DNA of 64,000 bases, from contig JBGARZ010000007.1 in NCBI GenBank assembly GCA_044229975.1, forward strand, positions 128,001 to 192,000, written 5' to 3'. The position numbers and the translations under genes are program-made. The stretch comes from Polyangiales bacterium (GTDB taxonomy: Bacteria > Myxococcota_A > Polyangia > Polyangiales > Ga0077539). Positions within the stretch are counted from its first letter, which is position 1. Every line of letters begins with the position of its first letter. Below, one piece after another: positions 26,961 to 44,225 of the stretch. The notes under the pieces were generated by a model, which searched no databases, was not told the DNA's origin, and saw nothing but the letters and a program-made list of their open reading frames with translations.

Positions 26961-28385
26961 CTACGGGCAGCGCGAGGCGTCGGCGCAGAGCGAGAAGCCG
27001 CCCGCGCGCGGCGAGGTGCAGCAGCGCAGGTCGTCGTCGGCGCAGGCGGTACACGGGCAGGTGTTGCAGGTCGGCTCGACGCGGGTGTAGCGGCACTCGC
27101 CGTCGAGGCAGACATCCGTGGTGCCGCACTCCTCGCCGCAGTCGCCGCAGTGGAGCGGTGAGCTCCTGCGGTCGACGCACTCGCGCCCGCACAGGGTCAT
27201 CGGCGCGCGGCAGTCGGCGGGCGGACGGCACATGCCGTTGACGCACGCGTTGGGGCTCACGCAGGCGTTGTTGATGCGACCGCAGTGGTCGCGGTTGCTC
27301 TGGAGGTCGACGCAGCGGCTGCCCGTGCGGGTAAGCCCGGGGCGGCACACGCACGCGCCGCCCTGGCAGGTCTCGTCGGAGTCGCACTCGTTGCCGACGC
27401 GGCCGCAGTTCTCGGGGTCGACCTGCGTCGCCACGCAGCGCCCGTCGCCGTCGGCTACGGTGCCCGCGCGGCACTGGCAGCGGCCGGCGGTGCAGGTGCG
27501 ATCGGCGGCGCAGACGGTTCCGCAGGCGCCGCAGTTGGCGGGGTCGTTGGTGCGGTTGACGCAGCGGCCGCCGCACGACGCGAGGCCGCCGGTGCACTGG
27601 CAGCTCCCCGCGACGCACGCCTCGCCGGCGCCGCACGCCCGCCCGCACGCGCCGCAGTGGGCGCGATCGGTGAGGGTGCTCACGCAGGCGCCCGCGCAGA
27701 GGGTCTGCGTAGCGGGACAGGCGCACATGCTGAAGGTGCACATCTGACCGGGACCACACGCGACCCCGCAGCGCCCGCAGTTGGCCATGTCGAAGCGGAA
27801 GTCGACGCAGCGCCCGGCGCAGGGGAAGAGCGGCGCGGTGCAGTCGGGCTGGCAGGAGCCGTCGACGCAGCGCTGGCTGCTGGGGCAGACCCGGCCGCAC
27901 GAGCCGCAGTGGCGGAGGTCGGTGCGAAGGTCGTAGCAGGCGGCGCCGCACGCGGAGAGGCCCGGCGCGCAGGTGCTGCCGGTATCAGCAACGACGGGGA
28001 CATCGGGCGCGACCGGGACGTCGGGTTCGGTGGGAACGTCGGCTTCGATGGGAACGTCGGGCGTGACCGGGACGTCAGTGGGATCGACGACGTCGGGCGC
28101 GATCGGGACATCAGGCGCGATCGGGAGGTCGATGGGCAGGAGGGCGTCCGTCGGCGCGTCGTCACCGAGCGTGTCGGGCGCGACGTCCGCGCCTGCGTCG
28201 ACGCTGGTGTCGGCGACGGACCGATCGGGCGGGACGACGGGCGCGTCGCGCTCACCCGCGTCGACCGGGACGACGTCGCTCGTGGGGATGCGAAGGAGGC
28301 GCGTCTCGTCGGGGGACACCAGGATCCCGCAGCCCGCGGCGACGACGGCGAGGAGGGCGATGGCCGTGCGCGGACGGGTGATCAT
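26961..28385 (-). CDS. Cys-rich repeat lipoprotein (STIG1 / MXAN_6577-like repeats)
   Basis: Lipobox AAGC; Pro/Asp/Val linker; about 7 CVD..TD..HCG.CG..C repeats. Confidence 0.85.
   Translation of the reverse strand: MITRPRTAIALLAVVAAGCGILVSPDETRLLRIPTSDVVPVDAGERDAPVVPPDRSVADTSVDAGADVAPDTLGDDAPTDALLPIDLPIAPDVPIAPDVVDPTDVPVTPDVPIEADVPTEPDVPVAPDVPVVADTGSTCAPGLSACGAACYDLRTDLRHCGSCGRVCPSSQRCVDGSCQPDCTAPLFPCAGRCVDFRFDMANCGRCGVACGPGQMCTFSMCACPATQTLCAGACVSTLTDRAHCGACGRACGAGEACVAGSCQCTGGLASCGGRCVNRTNDPANCGACGTVCAADRTCTAGRCQCRAGTVADGDGRCVATQVDPENCGRVGNECDSDETCQGGACVCRPGLTRTGSRCVDLQSNRDHCGRINNACVSPNACVNGMCRPPADCRAPMTLCGRECVDRRSSPLHCGDCGEECGTTDVCLDGECRYTRVEPTCNTCPCTACADDDLRCCTSPRAGGFSLCADASRCP
27990..28140 (-). 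repeat. Degenerate 18-nt coding tandem repeat (PDVPxA linker)
   Basis: PIDLPIAPDVPIAPDVVDPTDVPVTPDVPIEADVPTEPDVPVAPDVP. Confidence 0.7.
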
Positions 28386-28527
28386 GGCCCTGCGGACGAT
28401 ACACCACTGCCGCGATCGGACGGCGTTTCGATCGGTCGCGGGATGACGTACGCCGCTCAGGTCGAGGACCGAACCGTCGAGCTCGCGTCCCCTTGTGCTC
28501 CGCTCTTGATGGGTGCTGAATCCCACG

Positions 28528-31500
28528 ATGCACCCTCCTGCGGCGCGCTCGCGTACCCCCGCCGTGCTCGGTCTCCTCGGCGGACTCGTCGCCCTCTGGA
28601 CCGGCGGAACCGCCAGCCTCATCGCGCTCTCCGACCCGCCCGCGCTGCCCACCATGCGCTCGTCGCTTGCGCCCGCAACGCGGCTCAGGCCGCCGACGCC
28701 CGTCACGCTGACGCCGTTTCCGCGCTCGCTCGACGAGCTCCGCGCCCTCAACGCCGAGGCCACCCGCCTTCGCCCCGACGCCCGCTTCGTCGCTGCCTTC
28801 GCCGAGGTGCAGCGCCTCCGCGGTCGACCCAACGCCGTCGCCACCACACAGTTCGCGCGTGACCACTGGGTCGTCTCCGTCGACGGTCAGGCTGTCGGCG
28901 AGCTGCCCCTCCTCGCGACGCCCGCCGACGCGCTCACGTCGCTCACTCGCTCGGTCCCCGCGAGGGCGCCGATCCCGCCCGACAACACCGCGCCTCGGCA
29001 CGTCGCCGACGTCGCCCCCGGCGCCGAGATCGCCGCCCTCCGCGCGCTCGCGGGGCCCGTCACCGCCGCCGGACCGCCCCACCCGGCCGCCGCGGCCCGC
29101 GCGCTCGCGGTGCTGTTCCATCGCACCTTCGATCGCGTCGACGCCAACGACGCCCTCGCGGCCCGCGCGCTCGCCGCCGCCGCATGGGCCCGCGCGGTGG
29201 GCTCGCCCGCGCCCGATGCCGAGGTGCTCGTCGCCCAGGAGATGGCGTACCCCGCAAACGCGCGGGTGCTCGCGGCACCCCTCGTCCCGAGCGACCCGGT
29301 GCGCCTCTACCTCGACGAGCAGCAGCGCCTCGGCTTCGTGCCCCGGCCCGGCGCCAACTACCTCCACTACCGCGTGATGGCGTCCTTCCACGCCCCGGAG
29401 GGACCAGACGTCGTCGCGCAGATGCCGGCGGAGATGCGCCCGTCCCTCGCCATCGTGGGCTGGCTCCCCTGGACGGCGAGCCCCGCCGACTTCGGCGCGC
29501 GCATGACCGCCCTGCAAGAGAGCCCCTCCCGCACCCTGGCCGCGCTCCAGCGAGAGGTGGGCATCGAGCCCGCGAGCTCGCTCCTCGACGACGCGACGGT
29601 GCTCGCTCGCACCGAAGCCCTCCTGGCGCGTCCCCCCGAGGCGCTCCCCTGGCTCGACGCCGGCCTCTCCGCCGCCCGCATCCGCAGCGCCACCTGGAAC
29701 GCCATGCAGCGCTCCCTCGACGTCGAGCTCCAGTCGCGCAGCGATCCCGAAGCAGCTCGTCGCCAGCTCCGCGCCATGGAGCGCGGCGGCTTCCCTGCGA
29801 TGCACCCGATGCTGTCCTGGTTCGGTGCGCTCGTGGACGCGGCGGAGCGCAGCCCCCGACGGCTCGCCGAGAGCGCGGTCAGTCCCGATGCTCTCCCCGG
29901 TACCTTGCGGCTGCGCGCGGCCGACGACTCCTCGGCGTGGGCGAGACGATCGGCGCTCCTCCAGATCGTTCCGCACCTCGACGCGCGCCCGACCCACCGC
30001 GCCGACCTCGCCGAGCTCTTGATGCAGGAGCGCCTCGACCCGCTCTGGCTCCGCGACCTTTGTCGGTCCGTGGTCACAGAGCCCCTCGTCAACGAAGACG
30101 TCGTGGCGGCGTGCCAGCGCCGCGACGCGCACGCCCCCAACTCCCCACCGACTCCGGCCGAGACCCCCGCGCAGATCGAGGCGCGCTTCATCGCCCTCAA
30201 CGCGCACGCCGGGACCTGGATGGCGTCCCGCGCCGAGTACGGTCGCTGGCTCAACGCGCAGGGCCGCGCGGCCGAGACCGTCGCGATGGCCCGCGCGTGG
30301 CTCGCGGCGCATCCCGAAGGGCTGGAGCCCGCCTTCACGCGCACCGGCATGGCGCGCGCCCAGCTCGCGATGAACGACCCCGCCGCCGCATGGACCTCCA
30401 TCGAGCCCGCGCTCGCGAGCTGGCAGGGCGGCGCGATGGAGATGGGCGTCCTCGTGTTGATCGCGCTCAATCGGCTCGACGAAGCCCACACCCTCGCCGA
30501 GCAGCGGCTCGCCCGCTACCCCGGCGTGGAGCAGGCCGCGACCGTCGCGGAGGTTCTCTGGCGGCAAGATCGGGTCGCCGACGCCGCGCGGGTCCTCGCG
30601 CCGCACGCCCCGCGCGGTGATGTGACGGAGTGGCGCAGCGCCGTCGGCGAGGCCCTCTCGCGGGCCTACGTCTCGCGAGACCCGACGGCAGTCCGTGCCG
30701 CCGCGGACGCGATGGTGCAGGGCGGCCTCGACGTCGGTGCGGTGGAGATGCTCGCGATCGAGCTCGAACGCTACGGCCACCCGACACACGCGCTCGCGGC
30801 GCACGAAGCGTTGAGCGCGCCGGGGCTGCGGGGCATGGCGCTCCTCGCGGTGCGACACCGGCTGGTGGCGGCGGCGCGATCACCCCGCGAGGCCGATCAG
30901 TGGCTGGAGGCGACGGTTCCGCCGCAGGGTCGCGGTCCGGTGGCGATGTTTGCGTTTGGCGAAGGCGAAGATGCGCTCGTGTGGAGCGCCGCCGACAGCG
31001 CCGAGTCCGACGCTGACGGCACGGCGTACCTCTGGCTCCTGCGCGCCGGGGCCCTGCTGCGCGCGCCGCCCGACCCCGCCCGTCGAGCACGTGTAGAGGC
31101 GGCCGTCGCCAACCCGACGGAGCCCTACCACCACATGGCGCGCTACCTCCTCGGCCTGGAGTCGCAAGAGCAGATGCTCAGCCTCCCGACCGCGGACGAC
31201 CGCCGCGCCGAGGTGGCGTTCTGGGTCGCGTATCGCGCTCACTGCGAGGGCCATCTGGAGGAAGCCGCAGAGTGGTATCGCTTCGTCGCGCGACGCGGAC
31301 CCGAGAGCGAAGGTGAGGTGGGCTGGGCGCTCCGCCCGCTGCGCCGATGGAGCGACTCGGCCGGGTGGCTCGACGCGGTCGTCGACCCCTGGGCGCAGGC
31401 TCACGCGGGTGTTGTTCCGACGGCCGAGCCCGTCGCCGCCGAAGAGCCCTCCGCAGGGGGAAGGCATCACCGCGGCCGTCACCGTTCACCCGGCGGCGGT

Positions 31501-31554: not shown

Positions 31555-32489
31555 ACGCCACCGCGCCGATGCCCTACCGCGACTTCAATCCGTCGTCCGC
31601 TTCCGCCGCCGCCGCGCCGCCGAGGCTCTGGACCCTCGCGCTAGGCGTCGTCTTCACTGCGGGCGTCACGCTCGTGGGCTTCGTCCTGACGCTCGGCGTC
31701 TTCGCCATCGCGTTCGCGGCGCGCCTCTCTCGTGCTGGTCGTCCCCCGTCGCCGCTGGCGCTCGTCGAGTCGATGAGCGAGTTCGCGCTCACGGGTCCCG
31801 GGGTGCTCGCGAGCGGCCTCGTGACGGCCCTCGCCTTCGGCGGAACCTCCCTGCTCGCGGGCATCCTCTCCGACGCGGGAGCGCGTGCGCGACTGCGACT
31901 GGGGCCGTCGCGGCGGTGGTTCGCGACGGGGCTCGTGGCGACGTTTCAGCTCGTGGGCTTCGGGATGATGGCGTCGCAGGTGGCGACGTTCCTGGGGATG
32001 AGCGAGCAGGGCTCGCTGCCGATGCTGCGGCGCGCGTTCGCGCACATGACGCTGCCGCTCGCGGTGCTGTCGGTGCTCATCGTCGGCGTGGGCGCAGGCG
32101 TCGCGGAGGAGCTGTTCTTCCGCGGTTACCTCCTCACGCGTCTCGAGCAGCGGGTGCGCCCCTGGCTCGCCAACGCGGCGGTGGCGATGGCCTTCGCGCT
32201 CGCGCACTTCGACCTGGTGCACTCGACCTTCGCGCTGCTGGTCGGCTTCGCGCAGGGTTGGACCTCGCGACGCAGCGGGAGCATCCGACCGGCGATGGTG
32301 GCTCACACCATCAACAACATCATCGGCGTGGTGGGCATGGCGGTGGCGGACTCGACTCGCCCGGAGCCGTTCTCGGCGCCGGAGCTGGTGGGTGGTGCGC
32401 TGTTGATGCTGGTCGGGACGGCGGGCGTCTGGCGACTCACCCGCGACAACGTGGCAGGTCAGCCGCCGTCAAACGGCGGAGCGCCGTAG
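31551..32489 (+). CDS. CPBP (Rce1/Abi CAAX protease-like) intramembrane metalloprotease
   Basis: AEELFFRGYL, FALAH, SGSIRPAMVAHTINN; ATGA coupling to the upstream gene. Confidence 0.92.
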   Translation: MNATAPMPYRDFNPSSASAAAAPPRLWTLALGVVFTAGVTLVGFVLTLGVFAIAFAARLSRAGRPPSPLALVESMSEFALTGPGVLASGLVTALAFGGTSLLAGILSDAGARARLRLGPSRRWFATGLVATFQLVGFGMMASQVATFLGMSEQGSLPMLRRAFAHMTLPLAVLSVLIVGVGAGVAEELFFRGYLLTRLEQRVRPWLANAAVAMAFALAHFDLVHSTFALLVGFAQGWTSRRSGSIRPAMVAHTINNIIGVVGMAVADSTRPEPFSAPELVGGALLMLVGTAGVWRLTRDNVAGQPPSNGGAP

Positions 32490-32914
32490 AGGTCCATCGC
32501 GCCGCCGTCGTCGTCGGGGGCGCCGGCGTCTTCGGGCGGAGGGATGCCGTAGGGCGGCGCGACGTTGCCGATGTCGAGCACACCGGTGTCGACGGCGCCG
32601 GTGTCGCGCGCGCCGGTGTCCGTCGGCGCGTGATCGACAGGGAAGCCCTGATCAGTGGCGGGGCGATCGACGGGGACGTCACCACCGCCGACGTCGGCGT
32701 TGGGTGCGGCGTCGGTGGCGGACACCGAGCTGCTGCACCCGGCGGCCGTGAGCGAGGCGGCGAAGGTGATGAGCGCGGCGCGGGACAGCCGACGCGGCGG
32801 GTCGCGGCGGGTGGGCAGCGGTCCGACGATGGGACGGTGACAGAACGGGCACGCCGACTCGGTCGCGACGACGTGGCGATGGCAGCCGGGGCAGGGGGCG
32901 AGCGGGCGGTACAT
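32459..32914 (-). CDS. Zinc-ribbon lipoprotein with C-terminal YGxPP motifs (paralog 1)
   Basis: CPGCHRHVVATESACPFC; RLSRAALITF...AAGC; VAPPYGIPP, MDLYGAPP; clearly paralogous to 41883..42440. Confidence 0.8.
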   Translation of the reverse strand: MYRPLAPCPGCHRHVVATESACPFCHRPIVGPLPTRRDPPRRLSRAALITFAASLTAAGCSSSVSATDAAPNADVGGGDVPVDRPATDQGFPVDHAPTDTGARDTGAVDTGVLDIGNVAPPYGIPPPEDAGAPDDDGGAMDLYGAPPFDGG

Positions 32915-33041
32915 CGGTGGGTGACCTCCGCGCGCGAGCGTATCGTGAAACCGCGGGGCACCACCGTCACTCGGTGCACACGATGGCGCGCGTATCCTGA
33001 CGGCCATCACCGCGCTGATGCTCGTCGCACCGCTCACTGGT

Positions 33042-33057
33042 TGGCGACCTGTTTGCA
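33042..33057 (+). promoter_or_regulatory. Putative sigma54 -24/-12 promoter
   Basis: TGGCGACCTGTTTGCA (GG-N10-GC) ending 13 nt upstream of ATG 33071. Confidence 0.5.
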
Positions 33058-33070
33058 GTGCCTCACTCCC

Positions 33071-34390
33071 ATGAACGAAGTCCGCCTCCGCCGACTGATC
33101 GAAGCCGCCGTCGCGCTCACCCTCGCGGGCTGCGCTCAGCGCATCGACCCGGCCACCTTCGCCGTCAACGTGTGCCGTGATGGTGTGTACACCCCCCTTG
33201 CGAACATCACCCCGGCGACGCCCGTGGACTTCGTCGCGCTCCGCGATCAGGTCGACCAGAACGTCGGCTTCCCTCCGGGAATGGACTTCGAGACGGTCGC
33301 ATCCACGGGAGCGTCCTGCTCCACTGCGACCGACCCGGTCGCCTGCACCACCGCACTCGCCGCCCTTCGCTCCGCAGAAGGATGGAAGCCCAACGTGCCA
33401 TTTGCCCGGCGGTGGGAAACGCATCGCTACGTGGTCACGACGCGCGGCGACACCATCGCCACCATCACGACGCTCGACGCGCTCGCCGACTTCCTGGGGC
33501 CGTTGGCGACCGAGGACGAGGCGGCGTGGTTTGCGAGCGAGCGCGGGTACCGCATCTCCTGCGATGGTCCCAACGCGCGTCGCACGCCGACGGGCTTCGA
33601 GCTGCGGGTGCAGTCGGGCAGCGACTGCGGCGGAGACGTCGGCGCCGTCGGCGTCGACGAACACGTGCTCGCGGTGGACCAGAGCGGCCGGGTGACGGTG
33701 CGGGAGACCGTTCGGGTGCGGGACGCCTACCCCAACTGCATCTCCGGTCGACGACCCTCGGGCATGGCGCTCGGTGGTGCTTCTCCGACGGCTCACGTGG
33801 GCGATTACCTCGCACGCGCCGCGGAGCTGGAGGCCGCGTCGGTGCATGCGTTTCGCAGACTCGCGTGTGAGCTGCGGGCGTTGGGTGCGCCCGAGAGGTT
33901 GGCGCTCGCGGCGGAGCGATCGATGCGCGACGAGGTGCGCCACGCGCGGGTGATGTCCCGCCTTGCCCAGCGCCACGGTGGAACAGTGCGCTCGCTGCGA
34001 CCGCCGCCATCGCAGCCGAGGCGATCGGCCTACGCCATCGCCCACGAGAACGCCGTCGAAGGATGCGTGCGGGAGACCTTCGGCGCGCTCCAGGCAACGT
34101 ACCAGTCGGCGCATGCTCGCGACCCGGAATTGGCCCGCGCGCTGGGTGCGATTGCGCGCGACGAGACGCGCCACGCCGCGCTCGCGTGGGACGTCGCTGC
34201 GTGGCTGGAACCGCGGCTCACCGATCGACAGCGAGCGTCTCTCGCGGGGGCGAGGCGGCGGGCGGTCGCGACGCTGCGACGAGAGCTCAGCGCTGCGGCG
34301 CCGCGCGATGCGGTTGCACTCGCGGGGGTGCCCGACGTGGGCGCGGCGCGGTCGCTGCTGACGTCGGTCGCGGGCGAGCTGTGGGCGTAG
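33071..34390 (+). CDS. Lipoprotein with a C-terminal ferritin-like diiron domain (GRRP type)
   Basis: Lipobox LAGC; CISGRRP; ELEAASV, DEVRH, ENAVEGCVRE, DETRH carboxylate/His ligand set. Confidence 0.85.
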   Translation: MNEVRLRRLIEAAVALTLAGCAQRIDPATFAVNVCRDGVYTPLANITPATPVDFVALRDQVDQNVGFPPGMDFETVASTGASCSTATDPVACTTALAALRSAEGWKPNVPFARRWETHRYVVTTRGDTIATITTLDALADFLGPLATEDEAAWFASERGYRISCDGPNARRTPTGFELRVQSGSDCGGDVGAVGVDEHVLAVDQSGRVTVRETVRVRDAYPNCISGRRPSGMALGGASPTAHVGDYLARAAELEAASVHAFRRLACELRALGAPERLALAAERSMRDEVRHARVMSRLAQRHGGTVRSLRPPPSQPRRSAYAIAHENAVEGCVRETFGALQATYQSAHARDPELARALGAIARDETRHAALAWDVAAWLEPRLTDRQRASLAGARRRAVATLRRELSAAAPRDAVALAGVPDVGAARSLLTSVAGELWA

Positions 34391-34396
34391 CGCCCG

Positions 34397-35365
34397 TTAC
34401 CCGATCGGGTACTGCGCCTTGAACTTCGCGATCTCCACCTCCCACCGCCGACTGAACTCCTCCCAGCTCGGATACTCCAGCCCAGGGATGCGCGGCGTCT
34501 CGACGCGCCATCCGTGGTGCCGGTCCCACGCCTCCCAGGTCGAGATCTTGTACGCGAGGCTCTCCGGGGGTCCGCAGTCCGCCTGGTGGTGCTCGTCCCA
34601 CGCCTCCTGCGATTGGATGAGCGGCCACCCTTCTAGCGCGACGGCGAGCGCGAGCGTCGGGCCCGCGTCCCACGCCGCCCCACCGATGACCTCGTCCCGC
34701 AGCAGCGCCTGATCGGTCGGGTCGAGCTCCAGTCGGTCGCCGTGTCGTCGCGCCCGCGACAGCACGATGGGCTCCCCGTGGTGCGTCACCGTGAGCGTCG
34801 CCTCGTCGGGGCCGACGTCGATCACCCGCGGCGGGCACCGGGCGTTCCAGCGGAGCGTCAGGTCGCGCTTCCACATCTGCGCCCACATCCCGGCGCGCAG
34901 GTAGAAGCGCACCGTGCGCTGCCAGCTCCAGCAGGTGTCGAGTCGCACCCCGAGCTTCTCCGCGGCGGCGATCTCGCGGAGCCGATCGAGCGCGCGTCGC
35001 CCGGTGCCGAGACCGCGTCGCGAGCGCAGAACGTAGAAGCTCCAGATGCGCATGTCGGCGACGCCGTAGGTCGTGCGCGAGAGCGCGATGGTTCCGACGC
35101 GCTGGCCGTCTTCCAGCAGCCAGTAGGGTTCGGAGTACGAGCTGCCGACGGGTTCGAGCGCGTCGTGCCACTCGGTGGTGGCGGTGGCGATCCAGCGGGC
35201 GCGGCGGTCGGCGTCGAGGGTGAGGGGGTCGGTGTCGTCGCCGAGGCGGTGCTCTGCGAAGGCCGCGAGGTCGCAGTCGATCCAGCGGCGCTCATCGGCT
35301 CCGCCGCGCTCGACGGGCTCGATGAGTCCGCGAGCGAGGAAGGCGTCGTGGGTGAGGTCCCTCAT
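34397..35365 (-). CDS. GNAT-domain protein with C-terminal extension
   Basis: IWSFYVLRSRRGLGTGRRAL acetyl-CoA motif; VRFYLRAG. Confidence 0.7.
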   Translation of the reverse strand: MRDLTHDAFLARGLIEPVERGGADERRWIDCDLAAFAEHRLGDDTDPLTLDADRRARWIATATTEWHDALEPVGSSYSEPYWLLEDGQRVGTIALSRTTYGVADMRIWSFYVLRSRRGLGTGRRALDRLREIAAAEKLGVRLDTCWSWQRTVRFYLRAGMWAQMWKRDLTLRWNARCPPRVIDVGPDEATLTVTHHGEPIVLSRARRHGDRLELDPTDQALLRDEVIGGAAWDAGPTLALAVALEGWPLIQSQEAWDEHHQADCGPPESLAYKISTWEAWDRHHGWRVETPRIPGLEYPSWEEFSRRWEVEIAKFKAQYPIG

Positions 35366-35416
35366 CGCCGCGATGGTACCGCTCGGGCGACGGCGGGTCG
35401 CTGTTTCCGCGACGCC

Positions 35417-36026
35417 CTACAACTCCCCGAACAACTCCTTCATCGGCACGCCCAGCGCCACTGCGAGTCGGTACAGCGCGGACACGCTCGCGCTCCCTTC
35501 GCCGCGCTCCACCTGGGACAACTGCGACACCGACAGATCCGCCCGCCGCCCGAGGTCCTTCAGCGTCAGCCCCAACCCATGCCGCTTCGTCCGAACCACC
35601 TCGCCGATGGCCTTGAGCACCTGCTCCTCCGGCGCGCGCAGCAACCCCCTGCGCCGCAGCACCCGCGTCACCACCTCGCGCAGCGCCTCTACGGTGAAGG
35701 GCTTCTTCAGGTAGTCCATCGCTTCGAGCTGCATCGCCGCCACGGCCGTCTCCACCGACGGAAACCCGGTGATCATCACCACCGCCAGGTCGCGGTCGAC
35801 GGCGCGCACCTTCCGCAGCGTCTCCACCCCGTCCTGCTGCGGCATCATCACGTCCAGCAGCAGCAGGTGGTACGCCCCGTCGCGCACCCGCGCCTCGGCC
35901 TTCGTCGGGTCGCTCTCCGTGTCCACCGCGCACCCGTCGTGCGCGAGAACGGTCACCAGCAGCTCGCAGATGGCCGCGTCGTCGTCGACCACCAGCACCC
36001 GCGGAATCGTCGGCGTCGAGTGCCGC

Positions 36027-36034
<8 letters not shown>
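35417..36034 (-). CDS. Response regulator (REC) with C-terminal XRE/HTH_3 domain
   Basis: VLVVDDD, LLDVMMP, YLKKPF; GLTLKDLGRRADLSVSQLSQVERG. Confidence 0.9.
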
Positions 36035-37558
<1,524 letters not shown>

Positions 37559-37562
<4 letters not shown>

Positions 37563-38557
37563 GACACAACCGCCTTGCGCCCGCCCGGCAGGAAGCGCCG
37601 CAGGTCGAGCTCGCGCGTGCCGAGGAGGCCTTGTGGTCGCGCGAGCATGAGCCCGATGAGCAGCAGCGCGTACACCACCAGCCGGTAGCCGTGAAACTCG
37701 CGCAGGAGTTCGAGCGAGACGGCCACGGCGACGCCGCCGATGACGGCGCCGGTGATGCTGCCGAGGCCGCCGAAGATGATCATCACGAGGATGTCGACGG
37801 AGCGATCGAGGCGGAAGAGACCGGGGTCGATGTGCTGCCCGCCAGTCGCGTCGTGGGCGTAGAGCGATCCCGCCAGGCCGGTGGTCATCGCGCTGATGGC
37901 GAAGGCGAGCACCTTGTAGCGGGTGGTCGGGATGCCCGCGGCCTCGGCGGCGATCTCGTCTTCGCGGATGGCGGTGAGCGCGCGGCCGTAGGAGCTGTAC
38001 GTGAGGTTGCCGACGAGGAGGACGGTGAGGAGGACGCCGCCCCAGATCCACGGGAGGGTGGCCGTCGCGGGGATGCTCTCGGCGCCGAAGGGCCAGCCGC
38101 CGCCGCCGCCGAGGGGCGCGAGGCTCTCGATGGAGATGCGGATGATCTCGCCGAAGCCGAGGGTGACGATGGCGAGGTAGTCGCCGCGCAGTCGCAGCGA
38201 CGGAACGCCCACCGCGACGCCCGCGAGGCCCGCGCAGACGACGGCGACGAGGCAGGAGACGACGAGCGCGAGGGCGGGCGAGGTGTGCCCGAGGGAGCCC
38301 GCGGTGAGGTGCGAGGTGATGGCCCCGGCGTAGGCGCCGACGGCCATGAAGCCGGCGTGGCCGATGGAGAACTGCCCGGTGGTTCCGTTGACGAGGTTGA
38401 GGGAGACCGCGAGCATGGCGTTGACGCCGCACATGGCGAGCACGCGCACGGCGTACTCGCCCGCGGTGGCGCGGGTGAGGCGCTCGACGGCGAAGAAGAG
38501 CGCGATCGCGACAACGAAGCCGAGGAGTCTGCGTGCAGCGGTCACAGGAGGGTTCAC
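37559..38557 (-). CDS. livM: Branched-chain amino acid ABC permease LivM
   Basis: NLVNGTTGQFSIGHAGF, LRLRGDYLAIVTLGFGEII, IREDEIAA, GGLGSITG. Confidence 0.9.
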
Positions 38558-38668
38558 CCCGGCGCCGGAGGAGAGGAGTCGGAGACCCGGCGCGCGGCGG
38601 CGATGCTACGTCGAAACCGGGTCGCATCGAAGCCCTTCGGTGAGGGGGCCAGCAACCCCGATCGACGT

Positions 38669-39520
38669 CTATCCTCCGTCGCCCGGCGCCCCGGCGTCCG
38701 CCGCCTCGCGCGGCATCGCGTTGGGCCCGCAGTCCACCACCATCGGGGTCAAGCCCCCCGGCGGCGTCTGATCGAACACGTCTGCTGGCAGCTCGGGGTC
38801 GATGGACACCTCGCGGTAGCGCACCAGCAGGTCGATGCCGTCGCGCTCCATCTCCACGCGCACCCGCCGCGGAAAGGCCACGCCCTCGAACTCGGTGTAG
38901 TCCTCGAAGGTCAGCACCGCCCGCACGCCCCGCGCGTCGCGCATCTCCGCCCGCGTCGGCCGCGGGTGCTGCGCCTCGGGCCGCGCGCCCTCCCGCTCGG
39001 CGTCGGTGATCTCCATCCACAACGACTCGCCCGCTCCTCCGGTGCCCGCGATGTCGATCACGTAGTGCCCGTCGTCCCACCGGATGCGACGGTCGCCCGC
39101 GATGAGCGGCGGACCGCCCCCGAGCACTGCCACCACCTCCGCCGACTCCATCGGGATGCCGAGGAGCTGCGCCGCCACGCAGGGCCGCGCCTCGCCGACG
39201 TAGAAGTTGCCGCCGCGCAGGTCGGCCATCGCGAGGTGCTGCCCGTCCGAGAGCAGCGTGCTCACGGTGTTGCCGAAGGCCCGCGTGTCGACCCGCACCC
39301 GCGACGGTCGCTCCACGAACACGAACACCTCCCCCCGGATGCGCCCCTGCGGCCCGAAGTGGTCGGCCGATCCGTGCGCTCTCAGTCGGTGAAAGCGCTC
39401 GTCTCGCGCGCTCACGTGCCGCAGGGCCATGGCCGGGTCGGTGATGGGAAACCGCGGCGGGTGGCCCGAGCAGCCCACCACCACCGCCAACAGCCACGCG
39501 CCCACAGAAGCTCTACGCAT
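38669..39520 (-). CDS. Lipoprotein, LolA/LolB-like fold (DUF4292-like)
   Basis: Lipobox VVGC; ERPSRVRVD...FG; GVAFPRRV. Confidence 0.65.
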   Translation of the reverse strand: MRRASVGAWLLAVVVGCSGHPPRFPITDPAMALRHVSARDERFHRLRAHGSADHFGPQGRIRGEVFVFVERPSRVRVDTRAFGNTVSTLLSDGQHLAMADLRGGNFYVGEARPCVAAQLLGIPMESAEVVAVLGGGPPLIAGDRRIRWDDGHYVIDIAGTGGAGESLWMEITDAEREGARPEAQHPRPTRAEMRDARGVRAVLTFEDYTEFEGVAFPRRVRVEMERDGIDLLVRYREVSIDPELPADVFDQTPPGGLTPMVVDCGPNAMPREAADAGAPGDGG

Positions 39521-39576
39521 CGCGCGGGAACATATCGCGGCCCGGCGCGGGTGTGCGGTACAACGCGCGCCCTGTG

Positions 39577-40407
39577 ATGCTCGCGACGATGACCTGGTGG
39601 GAGGCGGTGGTGCTCGGCGTGGTCGAGGGCCTCACCGAGTACCTCCCGGTGAGCTCGACGGCCCACCTCATCCTGGCGCAGCGGGCGCTCGGCATCGCCG
39701 CGAGCGAGGAGGCCAACGCCTTCGCCATCTGCGTTCAGCTCGGGGCCATCGTCGCCGTGCTCGGGGTGTTCTTCGCGCGGGTGAAGTCCATGGCGCTCGG
39801 GGTGATCGGCCGCGACCCGGTCGGCCGCGCGCTCGCCCTGCGCGTCCTCGTCGGGTTCATCCCGGCGGCGATTCTCGGCAAGCTCTTCGACAAGCGCATC
39901 GAGCGGGTGCTCTTCGGGCTGTACCCCGTCGTCGCTGCGTGGTTCGTCGGCGGCCTCGGCATCCTGGTGCTGCACTTCACGAAGCGCGATCGCAAGCCCG
40001 GCCGCGCGCTCACCGAGCTCACCACGCGCGACGCCGTCCTCATCGGCCTCGCCCAGTGCCTCGCCATGTGGCCGGGCACGTCGCGCTCGCTCGCCACCCT
40101 CGTCGCGGGCCTGCTCGTGGGCCTCTCGCTCGAAGCCGCCGTCGAGTACAGCTTCCTCCTCGGCCTCGTCACCCTCAGCGCCGCCAGCGGGTACAAGCTG
40201 CTCAAGAGCGGCGCGGTGATGTTCCATGCGTACGGGCCGGTGAGCCTCACGCTGGGCTTCCTCGCCGCTGCCATCTCCGCCGTGCTCGCGGTGCGCTGGA
40301 TGCTCACCTGGCTCAAGGGCCACGGGCTCTGGGTCTTCGGCGTCTACCGGGTGCTGCTCGCGCTCGTCGTCGCCGAGATGCTCGGCACCGGGATGCTCCG
40401 GCCGTGA
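39577..40407 (+). CDS. uppP: Undecaprenyl-diphosphate phosphatase UppP/BacA
   Basis: LGVVEGLTEYLPVSSTAH, QLGAI, PGTSRSLAT, EYSFLL. Confidence 0.95.
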   Translation: MLATMTWWEAVVLGVVEGLTEYLPVSSTAHLILAQRALGIAASEEANAFAICVQLGAIVAVLGVFFARVKSMALGVIGRDPVGRALALRVLVGFIPAAILGKLFDKRIERVLFGLYPVVAAWFVGGLGILVLHFTKRDRKPGRALTELTTRDAVLIGLAQCLAMWPGTSRSLATLVAGLLVGLSLEAAVEYSFLLGLVTLSAASGYKLLKSGAVMFHAYGPVSLTLGFLAAAISAVLAVRWMLTWLKGHGLWVFGVYRVLLALVVAEMLGTGMLRP

Positions 40408-41372
40408 GCGTCTGCTCGCTTCCAGCTCGCCGCGCCGCGCTCGCCATCGCTGCCTCGCTGCTCTCGTTCTCCATCAACGCCAGCGCGCAGACCGTCCCCG
40501 CTCCCACGACCAGCGTCGTGCCCGCGGCTGCGCGGCCCACCAGCGACCGCATGACGCGCGACGAGCGCATCCTCTTCGGCCTGCTCACCGCGACCTACGG
40601 GCTGCGCCTCGGCTCCGCCATCAACCTCGGCGCCTTCGGCCGAACGCCCGATGACCCCGAGCCCGAGACCTATTGGCTACTCCCTGGAGCGCTCGCCATC
40701 GCCGTCCCGGTGGGCGCGCTGCTCATCGAGCACCGCTACCCGCTGCGCCGCGGGCGTGGACTGTCGGCGGGCACCGGCGGCCTCATGGGCTACCTCGCCG
40801 GGACGGCCCTGCGGTCGTGGATTGCTGAAGAGTCGTTCCCTTCGAGCGCGACCCTCTCCGGGTGGACCACCTTCATCGGAACCACCTCCGGCATCGCCCT
40901 CGGCGCCCTCGTCGGTCACCTCACCGACGCCACCCCCGCCGACGCGCTCTACGTCGGGACCGGCGGCGTGGGCGGCGCGCTCCTCGGCGGCCTCGTCTGC
41001 GGCTCGGTGCGCTGTGGCACGAGCCTCGGCGCCTACGTCCTCGTCGGCGAGGTCACGCTGCTCACCACGGCGCTGCTCACCCGCTCGCGGGTGCGACCCA
41101 CGGCGCCCACCATGCGCCTCGTCGGCGCGGGCGCGCTCGGCACCGGCGTGCTCATGGGCGGCGGCGTGCTGCTCGCCCACGCCGTGCGCGACGGCGAGAT
41201 CACCCGCGAAGGCGTGCAGCGCAGCGCCGTCTTCGGCCTGGCGGGTCTGGTGGTGGGGGCGGTGACCTTCTTCGCGATCGGGCGGCAGGCGGAGGGGAGC
41301 GCGACGGTGGTTCCGACCGCGCAGGTGACGGGGCCGGGCATGGTGCTCGGGCTCGCGATGAGCAACCGGTAG
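40404..41372 (+). CDS. Gly-rich exported/membrane protein
   Basis: Signal peptide ending ASA-Q; several Gly-rich hydrophobic helices; GTGA coupling to uppP. Confidence 0.7.
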   Translation: MSVCSLPARRAALAIAASLLSFSINASAQTVPAPTTSVVPAAARPTSDRMTRDERILFGLLTATYGLRLGSAINLGAFGRTPDDPEPETYWLLPGALAIAVPVGALLIEHRYPLRRGRGLSAGTGGLMGYLAGTALRSWIAEESFPSSATLSGWTTFIGTTSGIALGALVGHLTDATPADALYVGTGGVGGALLGGLVCGSVRCGTSLGAYVLVGEVTLLTTALLTRSRVRPTAPTMRLVGAGALGTGVLMGGGVLLAHAVRDGEITREGVQRSAVFGLAGLVVGAVTFFAIGRQAEGSATVVPTAQVTGPGMVLGLAMSNR

Positions 41373-41444
41373 AACACCCCTTCGACGACGGTGCGCCATG
41401 CGCAGTGTGTGACAACCCCCGCGGGACGGTGAGAGTCTCCGCGC

Positions 41445-41825
41445 ATGACACCCGCAGCTCGTTCGCTCCTCGCCGTCCTCCCGCTGCTGCTCGTCGCGTC
41501 TGCGCCGTCGACGGCCTGGGCGCAGTCCGCGGCCGTGTGTGCTCCCGCGGTGCCGATGGAGCCGCGCGGTCCTGGCAACCACGACGCGCCCGAGCGGCTT
41601 CACTCGGGGCGTCATGTGTTGCGTATCGACGGTCGCATCCAGCTCGTCGTGCGTGGCGACCGCCCGGTGCGCGTCGACGGGCTCGCTCCCGGCGTGCACA
41701 CCATCGAGTACTTCTACGACGGGCACCGCATCGCGACCGTTCGGCGGAGGCTGCGCGCGGGGCAGGTGCTCGGGCTGGTGCCCGACGACTACGACGGCCC
41801 GCAGGTGCTCCCGGCGCGCTGCTGA
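41445..41825 (+). CDS. Small secreted protein (PEGA-like beta domain possible)
   Basis: Signal peptide AWA-Q; RVDGLAPGVHTIE. Confidence 0.6.
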   Translation: MTPAARSLLAVLPLLLVASAPSTAWAQSAAVCAPAVPMEPRGPGNHDAPERLHSGRHVLRIDGRIQLVVRGDRPVRVDGLAPGVHTIEYFYDGHRIATVRRRLRAGQVLGLVPDDYDGPQVLPARC

Positions 41826-41882
41826 GTCGGCGCGGCGTCGCCCTCCTTCCACCACGCGTGGCGGTCGTGGTGTCATCGCCCC

Positions 41883-42440
41883 ATGAGCCACGACACGCTG
41901 GTCCCTTGCGGCGGCTGCCATCGTCACGTGCGTTTGAGCGAAGCCGCCTGCCCCTTCTGCGCACACTCGCTCGCGGGCGCTTCGGCCGATGGCGTCGTCC
42001 CGGAGCCCGCGCAGCGCCTCAGCCGCGCGGGCGTGCTCGCCTTCGCCGCGGCCTTCCTCTCGACCGCGTGCCCGGCGCAACCCGCGCCGCCGACCCCCAA
42101 CAACAACGGCGGCGTGATGCAGACCATCTACGGCGGTCCGCCGCCTCCCACGCCGCCACCACCGACCGTCGACGCTTCGGCGCAGGCCATCGTCCCGAAC
42201 GCTCCCTTGTATGGCGGTCCGCCTCCCGAGCCGCCGCCGCCGCCCTCCCTGCCAACCGCCGACGCGTCGACCGTGCCCTCGACGCCTCCGACGCCTCCGC
42301 ACCGCCACCGGCGCGAAGCGCACGCGCAGGAGACGCCCCACGCGGTGCCCATGCCTGCGTACGGCATCTCCCCTCGGCCCGACCCCGGCAGCATGGTGAC
42401 CCGCTACGGCGCGCCGCCACGCCCCGACGTCGACGACTGA
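41883..42440 (+). CDS. Zinc-ribbon lipoprotein with four YGx(x)P motifs (paralog 2)
   Basis: CGGCHRHVRLSEAACPFC; RLSRAGVLAF...STAC; MQTIYGGPP, APLYGGPP, MPAYGISP, MVTRYGAPP. Confidence 0.8.
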   Translation: MSHDTLVPCGGCHRHVRLSEAACPFCAHSLAGASADGVVPEPAQRLSRAGVLAFAAAFLSTACPAQPAPPTPNNNGGVMQTIYGGPPPPTPPPPTVDASAQAIVPNAPLYGGPPPEPPPPPSLPTADASTVPSTPPTPPHRHRREAHAQETPHAVPMPAYGISPRPDPGSMVTRYGAPPRPDVDD

Positions 42441-42548: not shown

Positions 42549-44225
42549 ATGATTTCCTCGTTTTTGTCTGGTCGCGCTGAAAAGCGCCCTTCTCCCAGCG
42601 GACCTGAGGTCACTTCCCGTCCGCCGCCTCGCACCTGGCGCGAGCGCGCCCGGCTGCTCCGCTACGACGGTCATCGCCTCCTGGGCATGGCTCAGGTCGC
42701 GGGGCGCTTCGGCATCGCCGACCCTCAATCGAGTCTCTACGACCTGCTCTTCGCGGTCGGCGTGATGGACTCGCCGCCTCCTGCCCACGTCGACCCGCCG
42801 GAGCTCGACCCGATGCCGTGGGGTGGACGCGAGTACGCCGCGCCGCCGCCGACGCCCCCACCGGGCTTCGACTGCATGTGGCCCCAGGCGCCCGCGGTGC
42901 ACCCGGAGTTTCCCACCGCGGTGCTCAACGTGAGCGCCGAGGAGAGCCGGCATCACCTCTACAAAAACGCCGCGCGCTACCTCGGTCAGGCGCTCGCCCT
43001 CGTTCCCCGCGCGGTGCTCCGCTGTTGGTTCAATGACCCGCTGGCGACGATGGACGCCGCGCGCTTCGACGCGATCATCTCGGAGACCTGCTTCGCGCAG
43101 TACCTGAGCGACGTCGTCGACGAGGACGACCTCGCGTCCCTCGGTTCTCCCAGTGAGCCGGTCTTCGTGATCGACGCGGTGCCGGTGGACGACGTGCCGA
43201 CCTTCGATGGCCTGCATGTGTCCCGCTGCCGCGTCTTCTTCGTGCGCGGCGAGGGCGACCGCTTCGCCGTCCGCGCCGTCCGCATCGGCGACCAGCTCTT
43301 CCGCCGCGACGACGGGCCCGACTGGTCGTTATCCCTCTATCACGCCTTGATGGGAATCAATTACCACCTGCTCGCCGGCCAGCACGGCATGCTGCACTTC
43401 CCCTATGACGCCATCAACGCAGTGACGCAGAGCCTCGTGCCGCGCGGGCATATCCTCTATCAGATATTGCGGCCCTTTACCCGATACACGCTGGGCATCA
43501 ACAAAGCGGTGTTGAACCACCGTCGCTCCGTCTATCACAACTCACAACGGGAGATCTATTCGCCCTTCGCCATGAGGAGCGCGGTGATTCGCGCGGTCAC
43601 GGCCCTCGGCTACAACGGCGTCGAGGGCGACCCCTACCACCGGCCCTACTGCTTCGGACAACGGCGGATGGTCCCGAGCGCGTACAAGCGCTTCCTCGAT
43701 GACTGGGAGTCGGCGATCGGGGAGCTCGTCTCGACGGTGGCGGCGGGCATCCCGAAGGGCGACCCGTATGTGCGGGCCTGGGCGGACGCGCTGGCGGGGC
43801 ACGTCCCCGGCTTCCCCGATGGCGAGAGCGTCTTCGTGGGCGACGCGCTGGCCCGCGCGGTGACGAGCTACATCTTCACGGTCACCGTCCACCACGCCGG
43901 GGACCACCACAGCTACGCGACGATTCCGGTGGAGGAGAGCCCGCTGCGGCTGCGCGTGCCGCCGCCCGATCGTCGCGCCCCGCGGCCCTGGCGGCGCGCC
44001 GACCTCCAGACCCGCGAGGACTACTTCCGCCACCAGCTCGCGCGGCCGATGTACTTCGCCCCGGTCAACATGGAGACCATCGACCAGGTGGTCTTCGGGT
44101 TTCAATCACGACACTACAAAGACGCGGTGAAGCTGTTTCGCGCGCGCATGGTGGAGATCGACGAGCGTTGGGCCGGGAGCCGCTTCCCGAGCTCGCGCGA
44201 GATCGCCTGCAGCATCCAGTACTGA
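42549..44225 (+). CDS. Divergent lipoxygenase-like protein
   Basis: HLLAGQHGMLHFPYDAINAVTQSLVPRGHILYQILRPFTRYTLGIN aligns to the LOX His cluster; VTVHHAGDH; C-terminal IACSIQY. Confidence 0.75.
   Translation: MISSFLSGRAEKRPSPSGPEVTSRPPPRTWRERARLLRYDGHRLLGMAQVAGRFGIADPQSSLYDLLFAVGVMDSPPPAHVDPPELDPMPWGGREYAAPPPTPPPGFDCMWPQAPAVHPEFPTAVLNVSAEESRHHLYKNAARYLGQALALVPRAVLRCWFNDPLATMDAARFDAIISETCFAQYLSDVVDEDDLASLGSPSEPVFVIDAVPVDDVPTFDGLHVSRCRVFFVRGEGDRFAVRAVRIGDQLFRRDDGPDWSLSLYHALMGINYHLLAGQHGMLHFPYDAINAVTQSLVPRGHILYQILRPFTRYTLGINKAVLNHRRSVYHNSQREIYSPFAMRSAVIRAVTALGYNGVEGDPYHRPYCFGQRRMVPSAYKRFLDDWESAIGELVSTVAAGIPKGDPYVRAWADALAGHVPGFPDGESVFVGDALARAVTSYIFTVTVHHAGDHHSYATIPVEESPLRLRVPPPDRRAPRPWRRADLQTREDYFRHQLARPMYFAPVNMETIDQVVFGFQSRHYKDAVKLFRARMVEIDERWAGSRFPSSREIACSIQY

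Follow-up and report, generated by a model that had tools for sequence, protein, structure and literature searches.

How could a cytoplasmic radical S-adenosylmethionine (SAM) enzyme modify proteins that begin with an export signal and are encoded away from any such enzyme? The question is raised by two genes, P0001 and P0002, in a 64,000-nt window of the Polyangiales bacterium assembly GCA_044229975.1 (contig JBGARZ010000007.1, positions 128,001-192,000, forward strand). An earlier note on this DNA had proposed both as candidate splicease precursors. Our analysis points the same way, since the genome encodes two radical SAM/SPASM enzymes, assigned by sequence to the PlpX clade, that flank two paralogs of these genes. 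By analogy with known spliceotides, P0001 and P0002 are probably spliceotide-type substrates that are docked via their zinc finger, lose tyramine at xYG sites in trans before export and are then lipid-anchored. The two genes contain the following features.

32459..32914, (-): P0001, putative orphan substrate gene 1; 151 residues with a zinc finger, an export signal, a disordered Asp/Gly/Pro tail and 2 xYG
32840..32893, (-): zinc finger of P0001, CxxCxRH-x7-CPFC (C8-C25), the predicted enzyme-docking module
32735..32791, (-): RLSRA, hydrophobic helix and lipobox-like AAGC (Cys60) of P0001
32537..32557, (-): candidate splice site PPYGIPP (Y122) of P0001
32474..32497, (-): candidate splice site MDLYGAPP (Y143) of P0001
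41883..42440, (+): P0002, putative orphan substrate gene 2; 185 residues with a zinc finger, an export signal, a Pro-rich tail and 4 xYG
41907..41960, (+): zinc finger of P0002, CxxCxRH-x7-CPFC (C9-C26)
42015..42071, (+): RLSRA, hydrophobic helix and lipobox-like STAC (Cys63) of P0002
42123-42143, (+): candidate splice site TIYGGPP (Y83) of P0002
42204-42224, (+): candidate splice site PLYGGPP (Y110) of P0002
42354-42374, (+): candidate splice site PAYGISP (Y160) of P0002
42399-42419, (+): candidate splice site TRYGAPP (Y175) of P0002

Both proteins share the finger sequence CxxCHRH-x7-CPFC, the RLSRA motif and a hydrophobic run that ends in Cys (AAGC60 and STAC63), as the earlier note had described, and all six YG motifs that it quoted were located (Y122 and Y143; Y83, Y110, Y160 and Y175). 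Five of these six are of the YGxP type that it had named; AYGIS is not. A Pro/Asp-rich tail was found in P0001 (Asp 18%, Pro 14%), while the tail of P0002 is rich in Pro (31%) and not in Asp (5%). YG had been taken for the only conserved tail motif, which does not hold: D-A-G/D-T-G triplets are conserved as well. The two genes are indeed paralogs (36% identity over 131 residues). They lie 9 kb apart, and their GC content at third codon positions (0.88 and 0.86) matches that of coding genes of the same genome. The nearest paralog of P0001 is C14:174581 (44% identity), the first substrate gene of the operon described below. Pfam and NCBIfam held no named family for P0001 or P0002 and gave sub-threshold zinc-finger matches only. 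The ESM Atlas matches were all unnamed Myxococcota clusters (0.96-0.97), and homologs and related loci carry Polyangiales or Myxococcota labels. A single local cluster from 32459 to 42440 was rejected. The intervening genes are unrelated (GNAT, response regulator, ABC transporter, BacA), so P0001 and P0002 are two separate genes.

The family is large in this genome. A search for the motif CxxCxRH..CPFC over all six-frame open reading frames (ORFs) yielded 14 genes. One more was picked up by a profile of residues 1-75, and a profile of finger and signal from which YG had been removed recovered the same 15. Counting paralogs by profile, as the earlier note had in mind, thus gives 15, and every one has at least one xYG (15/15). 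Two lie between the enzyme genes; the other 13, including P0001 and P0002, are orphans located more than 5 kb from them. Among the tyrosines behind the finger in the 14 motif-found paralogs, 26 of 31 are YG and 25 of 31 are YGxP, compared to 9.2% and 0.6% of the tyrosines in coding-like ORFs of the genome. This enrichment of YG is more than chance. This genome makes the scale of the system plain: it has two enzymes and 15 putative substrates, of which 13 are orphans, and the same finger precedes signals of the lipobox as well as the AxA type.

As the earlier note had supposed, YG is conserved across homologs, in orthologs as well as orphans. All of 79 homolog proteins contain YG, which accounts for 202 of their 216 tyrosines, with the reservation that the search query itself contained YG; at these 202 sites X is Pro in 48, Glu in 21 and Asp in 18. 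From other genomes 20 orphan regions were fetched, covering 23 of 25 orphan matches, and YG was present in 24 of 26 ORFs; some of these contigs are short, and a few may not be true orphans. Eight close homologs of P0001 show no change in the YG of either site (Y and G of PPYGIPP 8/8; LYG of MDLYGAPP 8/8), and their linker is variable. The four metagenome loci with the closest P0001 homologs, three of them shorter than 3.5 kb, showed no enzyme. Of the 8 other genomes in the genus, 7 have homologs of P0002. The first YG site is kept in 7/7 homologs and the last in the 6/6 without truncation at a contig end; the middle sites are variable. In the homologs of both genes the zinc finger, the RH pair and the terminal YG sites are conserved while the linkers diverge.

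Some members depart from this layout. Three paralogs (L019:2501-3157 (-), L025:2501-3199 (+) and L031:2501-3148 (-)) have one YG followed by a folded-looking C-terminal region of 100-130 residues without a Pfam match, and two of them carry AxA-type signals. A protein of 1062 residues beside an enzyme gene (L133:5250-8435 (+)) has finger and signal, then a large region with three CxxCH motifs and a single YG far downstream; it is a fusion or an accident. In genome G184 a tandem array (L156:1-2701) holds at least six zinc-finger YG genes, five of which have GAD or GADE at the position of the lipobox Cys.

Relatives of the genome's enzyme were searched for in the window by tblastn, and nothing was found at E<=0.01, in agreement with the earlier note. 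In the genome, only two strong matches to TIGR04103 were obtained (511 and 474 bits; the next reached 55).

C14:173264-174562: enzyme 1, flanking family genes
C14:175738-177051: enzyme 2, flanking family genes

The order within C14:173264-177051 is enzyme, substrate (4 YG), substrate (3 YG), enzyme. The four genes share a strand, and neighbors are separated by 2 to 60 bases. The enzymes have the motif CX3CX2C (C50, C54, C57) and a seven-Cys SPASM domain. IPR026482, which we take to be the same family as TIGR04103, is the entry to which PlpX belongs. This assignment of PlpX is taken from the accessible part of PMC11002830. A comparison by eye with the PcpX sequence given in the PMC11414181 supplement showed 45 identities over 62 residues in the radical SAM block, with collinear SPASM and C-terminal motifs and tail; the enzymes also have a conserved N-terminal extension of ∼35 residues, which the printed PcpX sequence does not. 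No close solved structure was found by sequence, the best being SkfB and PqqE.

Judged by cut-off, membership was rejected for three described systems: type I spliceotides (TIGR04103), TIGR03913 and TIGR04133/TIGR04134. For TIGR04103 the scores of 511/474 bits compare with a curated cut-off of 725, and no Nif11/NHLP leader family matched P0001, P0002, P0005 or P0006. TIGR03913, the GDL-motif peptide-associated radical SAM/SPASM maturase, is the second-best model (494/425 bits, cut-off 592); its partner peptides are a different family. The Bacteroidota pair TIGR04133/TIGR04134 resembles the present arrangement in that a radical SAM/SPASM gene stands beside a putative lipoprotein, and lipoprotein partners of the TIGR04134 type have a YG motif. 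It was nevertheless discarded as the enzyme model in favor of the nearer TIGR04103 and TIGR03913: TIGR04133 scored 173/169 bits against a cut-off of 425, and TIGR04134 matched no family gene. Small Y proteins, which are only distantly PqqD-like, were not seen in the C14 operon, and the genome's three PqqD-family matches lie on other contigs.

Two enzyme copies were also observed in 15 of 79 loci (L064-L070, L073, L075-L077, L081, L083, L090, L092), as in the present genome, where the copies are 66% identical. Such paired copies may split substrate preference. About a dozen weak radical SAM matches are concentrated on one 150-kb contig (C30 of G000), which lies outside the window.

Family and enzyme were searched for in 201 genomes of the phylum, the family by an alignment and profile of the N-terminus only. 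A family match was found in 36 genomes and an enzyme match in 70 (E<=1e-60), 53 of which have a strong enzyme (E<=1e-100, plus G049, where the matches are split) by a cut that was set after the table had been seen. A strong enzyme is present in 34 of the 36 family genomes, and in 32 a member lies no more than 5 kb from it. The two exceptions (G154 and G178) are unrelated zinc ribbons without signal or YG, so that every genome with a true member (34/34) has the enzyme. Genomes with weak enzyme matches only had no family match (0/17). Co-occurrence with PlpX-like enzyme genes, which the earlier note had suggested as a check, is thus seen across the phylum, mostly as adjacent genes. Of the 19 genomes with an enzyme and no family match, loci were read in five, and four of these held a divergent gene with CxxC..CPxC, signal and YG. 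The reverse approach gave a similar picture: when loci were fetched by enzyme alone, 69 of 79 had a zinc-finger member no more than 4 kb away, and most of the ten memberless loci run into contig ends or have a partial enzyme match. With the YG-free profile, YG was present in 150 of 156 complete members from these 79 loci and 30 loci of the genome sample; five of the six YG-less members look truncated or frameshifted, and one has YAG.

To which part of the precursor the enzyme might bind was addressed by structure prediction. In the AlphaFold2 model of P0001, residues 1-30 have a predicted local distance difference test score (pLDDT) of 92-96, residues 45-57 form a helix, and the tail is of low confidence. 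A fold search with the model gave four matches, all chains with NZF/RanBP2-type fingers and all weak (Z 2.0-2.6), for example 1q5w_A (Z 2.2, root-mean-square deviation 2.3 over 30 residues). The predicted complex of enzyme, P0001 residues 1-66 and zinc scored 0.74, compared to 0.00 for the best of three controls; the score came from our own alignments with the zinc ion included, unlike the calibration, in which 116 of 157 solved complexes and 2 of 215 mismatched pairs came up to the mark. At least 24% of contacts are shared between runs, with a partner pLDDT of at least 58. Confident contacts were predicted between finger residues 3, 5, 7, 11-14 and 23 and enzyme residues 262-268, 346-350 and 374; among them, C11-H14 of the finger is joined with F262-L268 and Y346-Y347 of the enzyme. 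Both sides of this contact are conserved (R13 in 128 and H14 in 142 of 146 members; P264 and E266 in 53/53 and Y347 in 52/53 enzymes). None of the confident contacts involves the hydrophobic helix. The model supports binding of the zinc finger to the enzyme, and the finger is the part predicted to dock, consistent with the earlier note's view of the zinc ribbon as an enzyme-recognition element.

The docking model also bears on the alternative that only the operon genes are true substrates and that scattered paralogs such as P0001 and P0002 are unmodified plain envelope proteins or drifting copies. In its favor, the window has no enzyme, a distance of more than 5 kb separates 13 of the 15 family genes from the enzyme genes, and the middle YG sites of P0002 are present in some homologs and absent from others, one now being YD. 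Against it, finger, RH and terminal YG sites stay while linkers diverge, the enzyme is held by 34 of 34 genomes with true members, and P0001's own finger is predicted to dock on the enzyme. We consider this alternative unlikely.

The export signal was classed by motif analysis. A basic n-region, a hydrophobic h-region and a lipobox Cys are all present, and the n-region is unusually long. Among 146 distinct YG-bearing members, the hydrophobic run is closed by Cys in 144, with Ala or Gly at -1 in 138 of the 144. The genome contains Lgt and LspA genes. A twin-arginine translocation reading of RLSRA was rejected: RR-x-hydrophobic-hydrophobic precedes the h-region in 0/146, and the commonest motif is SRAA.

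Some members have the lipobox-like Cys as the X of an xYG site (ACYG): L026:2501-2785 (-) and L030:2501-2773 (+), on C32 and C36 of G000, and L057, L062, L147, L154 and L157. If these were spliced, the lipidation residue would become a keto-beta-Cys, and the two modifications would compete or give an unusual N-terminus.

A second alternative accepts splicing and regards the family as precursors of classical peptides made on the ribosome and modified after translation (RiPPs), whose tail is cut into short soluble keto-amide peptides with no lipid-anchored chain. Repeated cores in a disordered tail would suit such a product, as would AxA-type cleavage sites in place of the lipobox Cys in 3 of 15 paralogs and a CPBP-family protease gene that abuts P0001. 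Against this, 144 of 146 members have the lipobox-like Cys, the CPBP gene and P0001 are convergent, long and apparently folded C-terminal regions occur in some members, and no peptidase or exporter family matched any of the 18 ORFs scanned around the C14 operon. Release of soluble peptides is quite improbable.

In the mechanism that we favor, splicing of a docked chain before export and lipid anchoring, the finger would fold first and dock the unexported chain on the cytoplasmic enzyme, and the disordered tail would bring xYG sites into the active site. Known spliceases depend on an element that activates them, either a Y protein or a leader helix within the precursor itself (PMC11414181), and the finger may be its counterpart. 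Tyramine would be excised at xYG with a loss of 135 Da, leaving keto-amide groups, if the chemistry follows that of PlpX/PcpX. As in known lipoprotein families, the chain would then be exported and lipidated at Cys by Lgt and LspA, with signal and finger removed together. Modification of the orphans would occur in trans, a less secure step. The product could be an envelope-tethered, flexible array of keto-amide electrophiles that traps Ser/Cys proteases. This last step is the most speculative and is proposed because of the analogy with other spliceotides (PMC11626197, PMC9811515, both in part), which inhibit Ser/Cys proteases when spliced and not when unspliced (PMC11626197).

Several points weigh against this mechanism. 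Export competes with the oxygen-sensitive cytoplasmic enzyme, so the tail must be reached before translocation. A DYG site of RcsA stayed unmodified (PMC11626197), and X is often Pro, Glu or Asp in the present family; some sites may therefore not react. Only motifs were used to judge lipidation, and the signal is unusually long (the lipobox-like Cys stands at median position 62). Three of the 15 paralogs, two of the 14 and the fifteenth, have AxA-type cleavage sites and no lipobox Cys (12/14 have a lipobox-like Cys). Both enzymes score under the curated cut-offs of TIGR04103 and TIGR03913. The docking score and the strong-enzyme cut carry the reservations given with them, and related genomes are not independent samples, for which reason no statistic is given for the co-occurrence. 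A real pairing in which the enzyme performs a different radical reaction on the YG tyrosine, for example an aromatic cross-link, would fit the sub-cut-off scores and the N-terminal extension, but is very improbable given the collinear high similarity to PcpX through radical SAM block, SPASM and C-terminal tail and a conserved target that is exactly xYG.

Among described systems, the comparisons below holding for the accessible text of each source, the type I spliceotides PlpX/PlpY/PlpA and PcpXYA of Pleurocapsa (TIGR04103; PMC11414181, PMC11002830) are similar in enzyme clade (511 bits over almost the whole model), xYG target and multi-site precursors. Unlike them, the present family has a finger head and an export signal, no Nif11/NHLP leader or Y protein seen in the operon, and 13 orphan substrates in one genome. 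Two-component spliceotides (types II-V, e.g. RhaXA and RcsXA; PMC11414181, PMC11626197, PMC10849128) share the combination of enzyme and YG precursor without a Y protein, with the element for activation or docking placed in the N-terminus of the precursor itself. In RhaA the leader works by way of a helix, in contrast to the zinc finger of the confident contact predicted here. The present system probably works like a two-component spliceotide system, and the types of Scott et al. 2022, who reported 27 confirmed and 939 predicted systems in 189 genera (via PMC10849128, PMC10533398), may already include myxobacterial zinc-finger precursors. In the DAG-RiPPs DybA/DybH (PMC13056109), cytoplasmic modification of a RiPP is likewise followed by Lgt/LspA lipidation; in contrast to the present enzymes, theirs is of the MNIO class and recognizes a C-terminal motif. 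That paper describes lipoprotein-RiPP hybrids for MNIO enzymes, and "splice" is absent from its main text. It expects lipidated RiPPs to be leader-independent or follower-dependent, while the leader module predicted here precedes the signal peptide. Our literature search, whose coverage left out most subscription journals, found nothing on zinc-finger/lipoprotein YG precursors of Myxococcota.

If the proposed mechanism is true, it would show how a RiPP enzyme can use a leader though the substrate's N-terminus is a signal peptide, and it would extend lipoprotein-RiPP hybrids to radical SAM backbone splicing. Protein engineers would also gain, in the finger, a small docking module with which to introduce beta-amino acids. 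A 2022 review (PMC9811515, accessible part) describes the native products and roles of spliceotides as still unknown; a lipid-anchored, multi-copy substrate family would offer a direct handle on such products.

Some neighboring genes in the window were also noted. The CPBP (Rce1-like) intramembrane protease gene (31561-32489, (+)) is weakly like myxosortases; it is convergent with P0001 and overlaps its 3' end by 31 bases, an arrangement also found in L163. Divergent from P0001 lies a lipoprotein-like ORF of 439 residues (33071-34390, (+)) with a faint C-terminal match to rubrerythrin (ferritin-like; E 0.14). A Cys-rich protein (26961-28847, (-)) has six Stig1-type repeats (PF04885) after a Pro/Asp/Val-rich linker. 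The ORF of 558 residues at 42549-44225 (+) has no Pfam or NCBIfam match; its His-rich motifs and C-terminal SIQY make it a candidate for a lipoxygenase-like fold.

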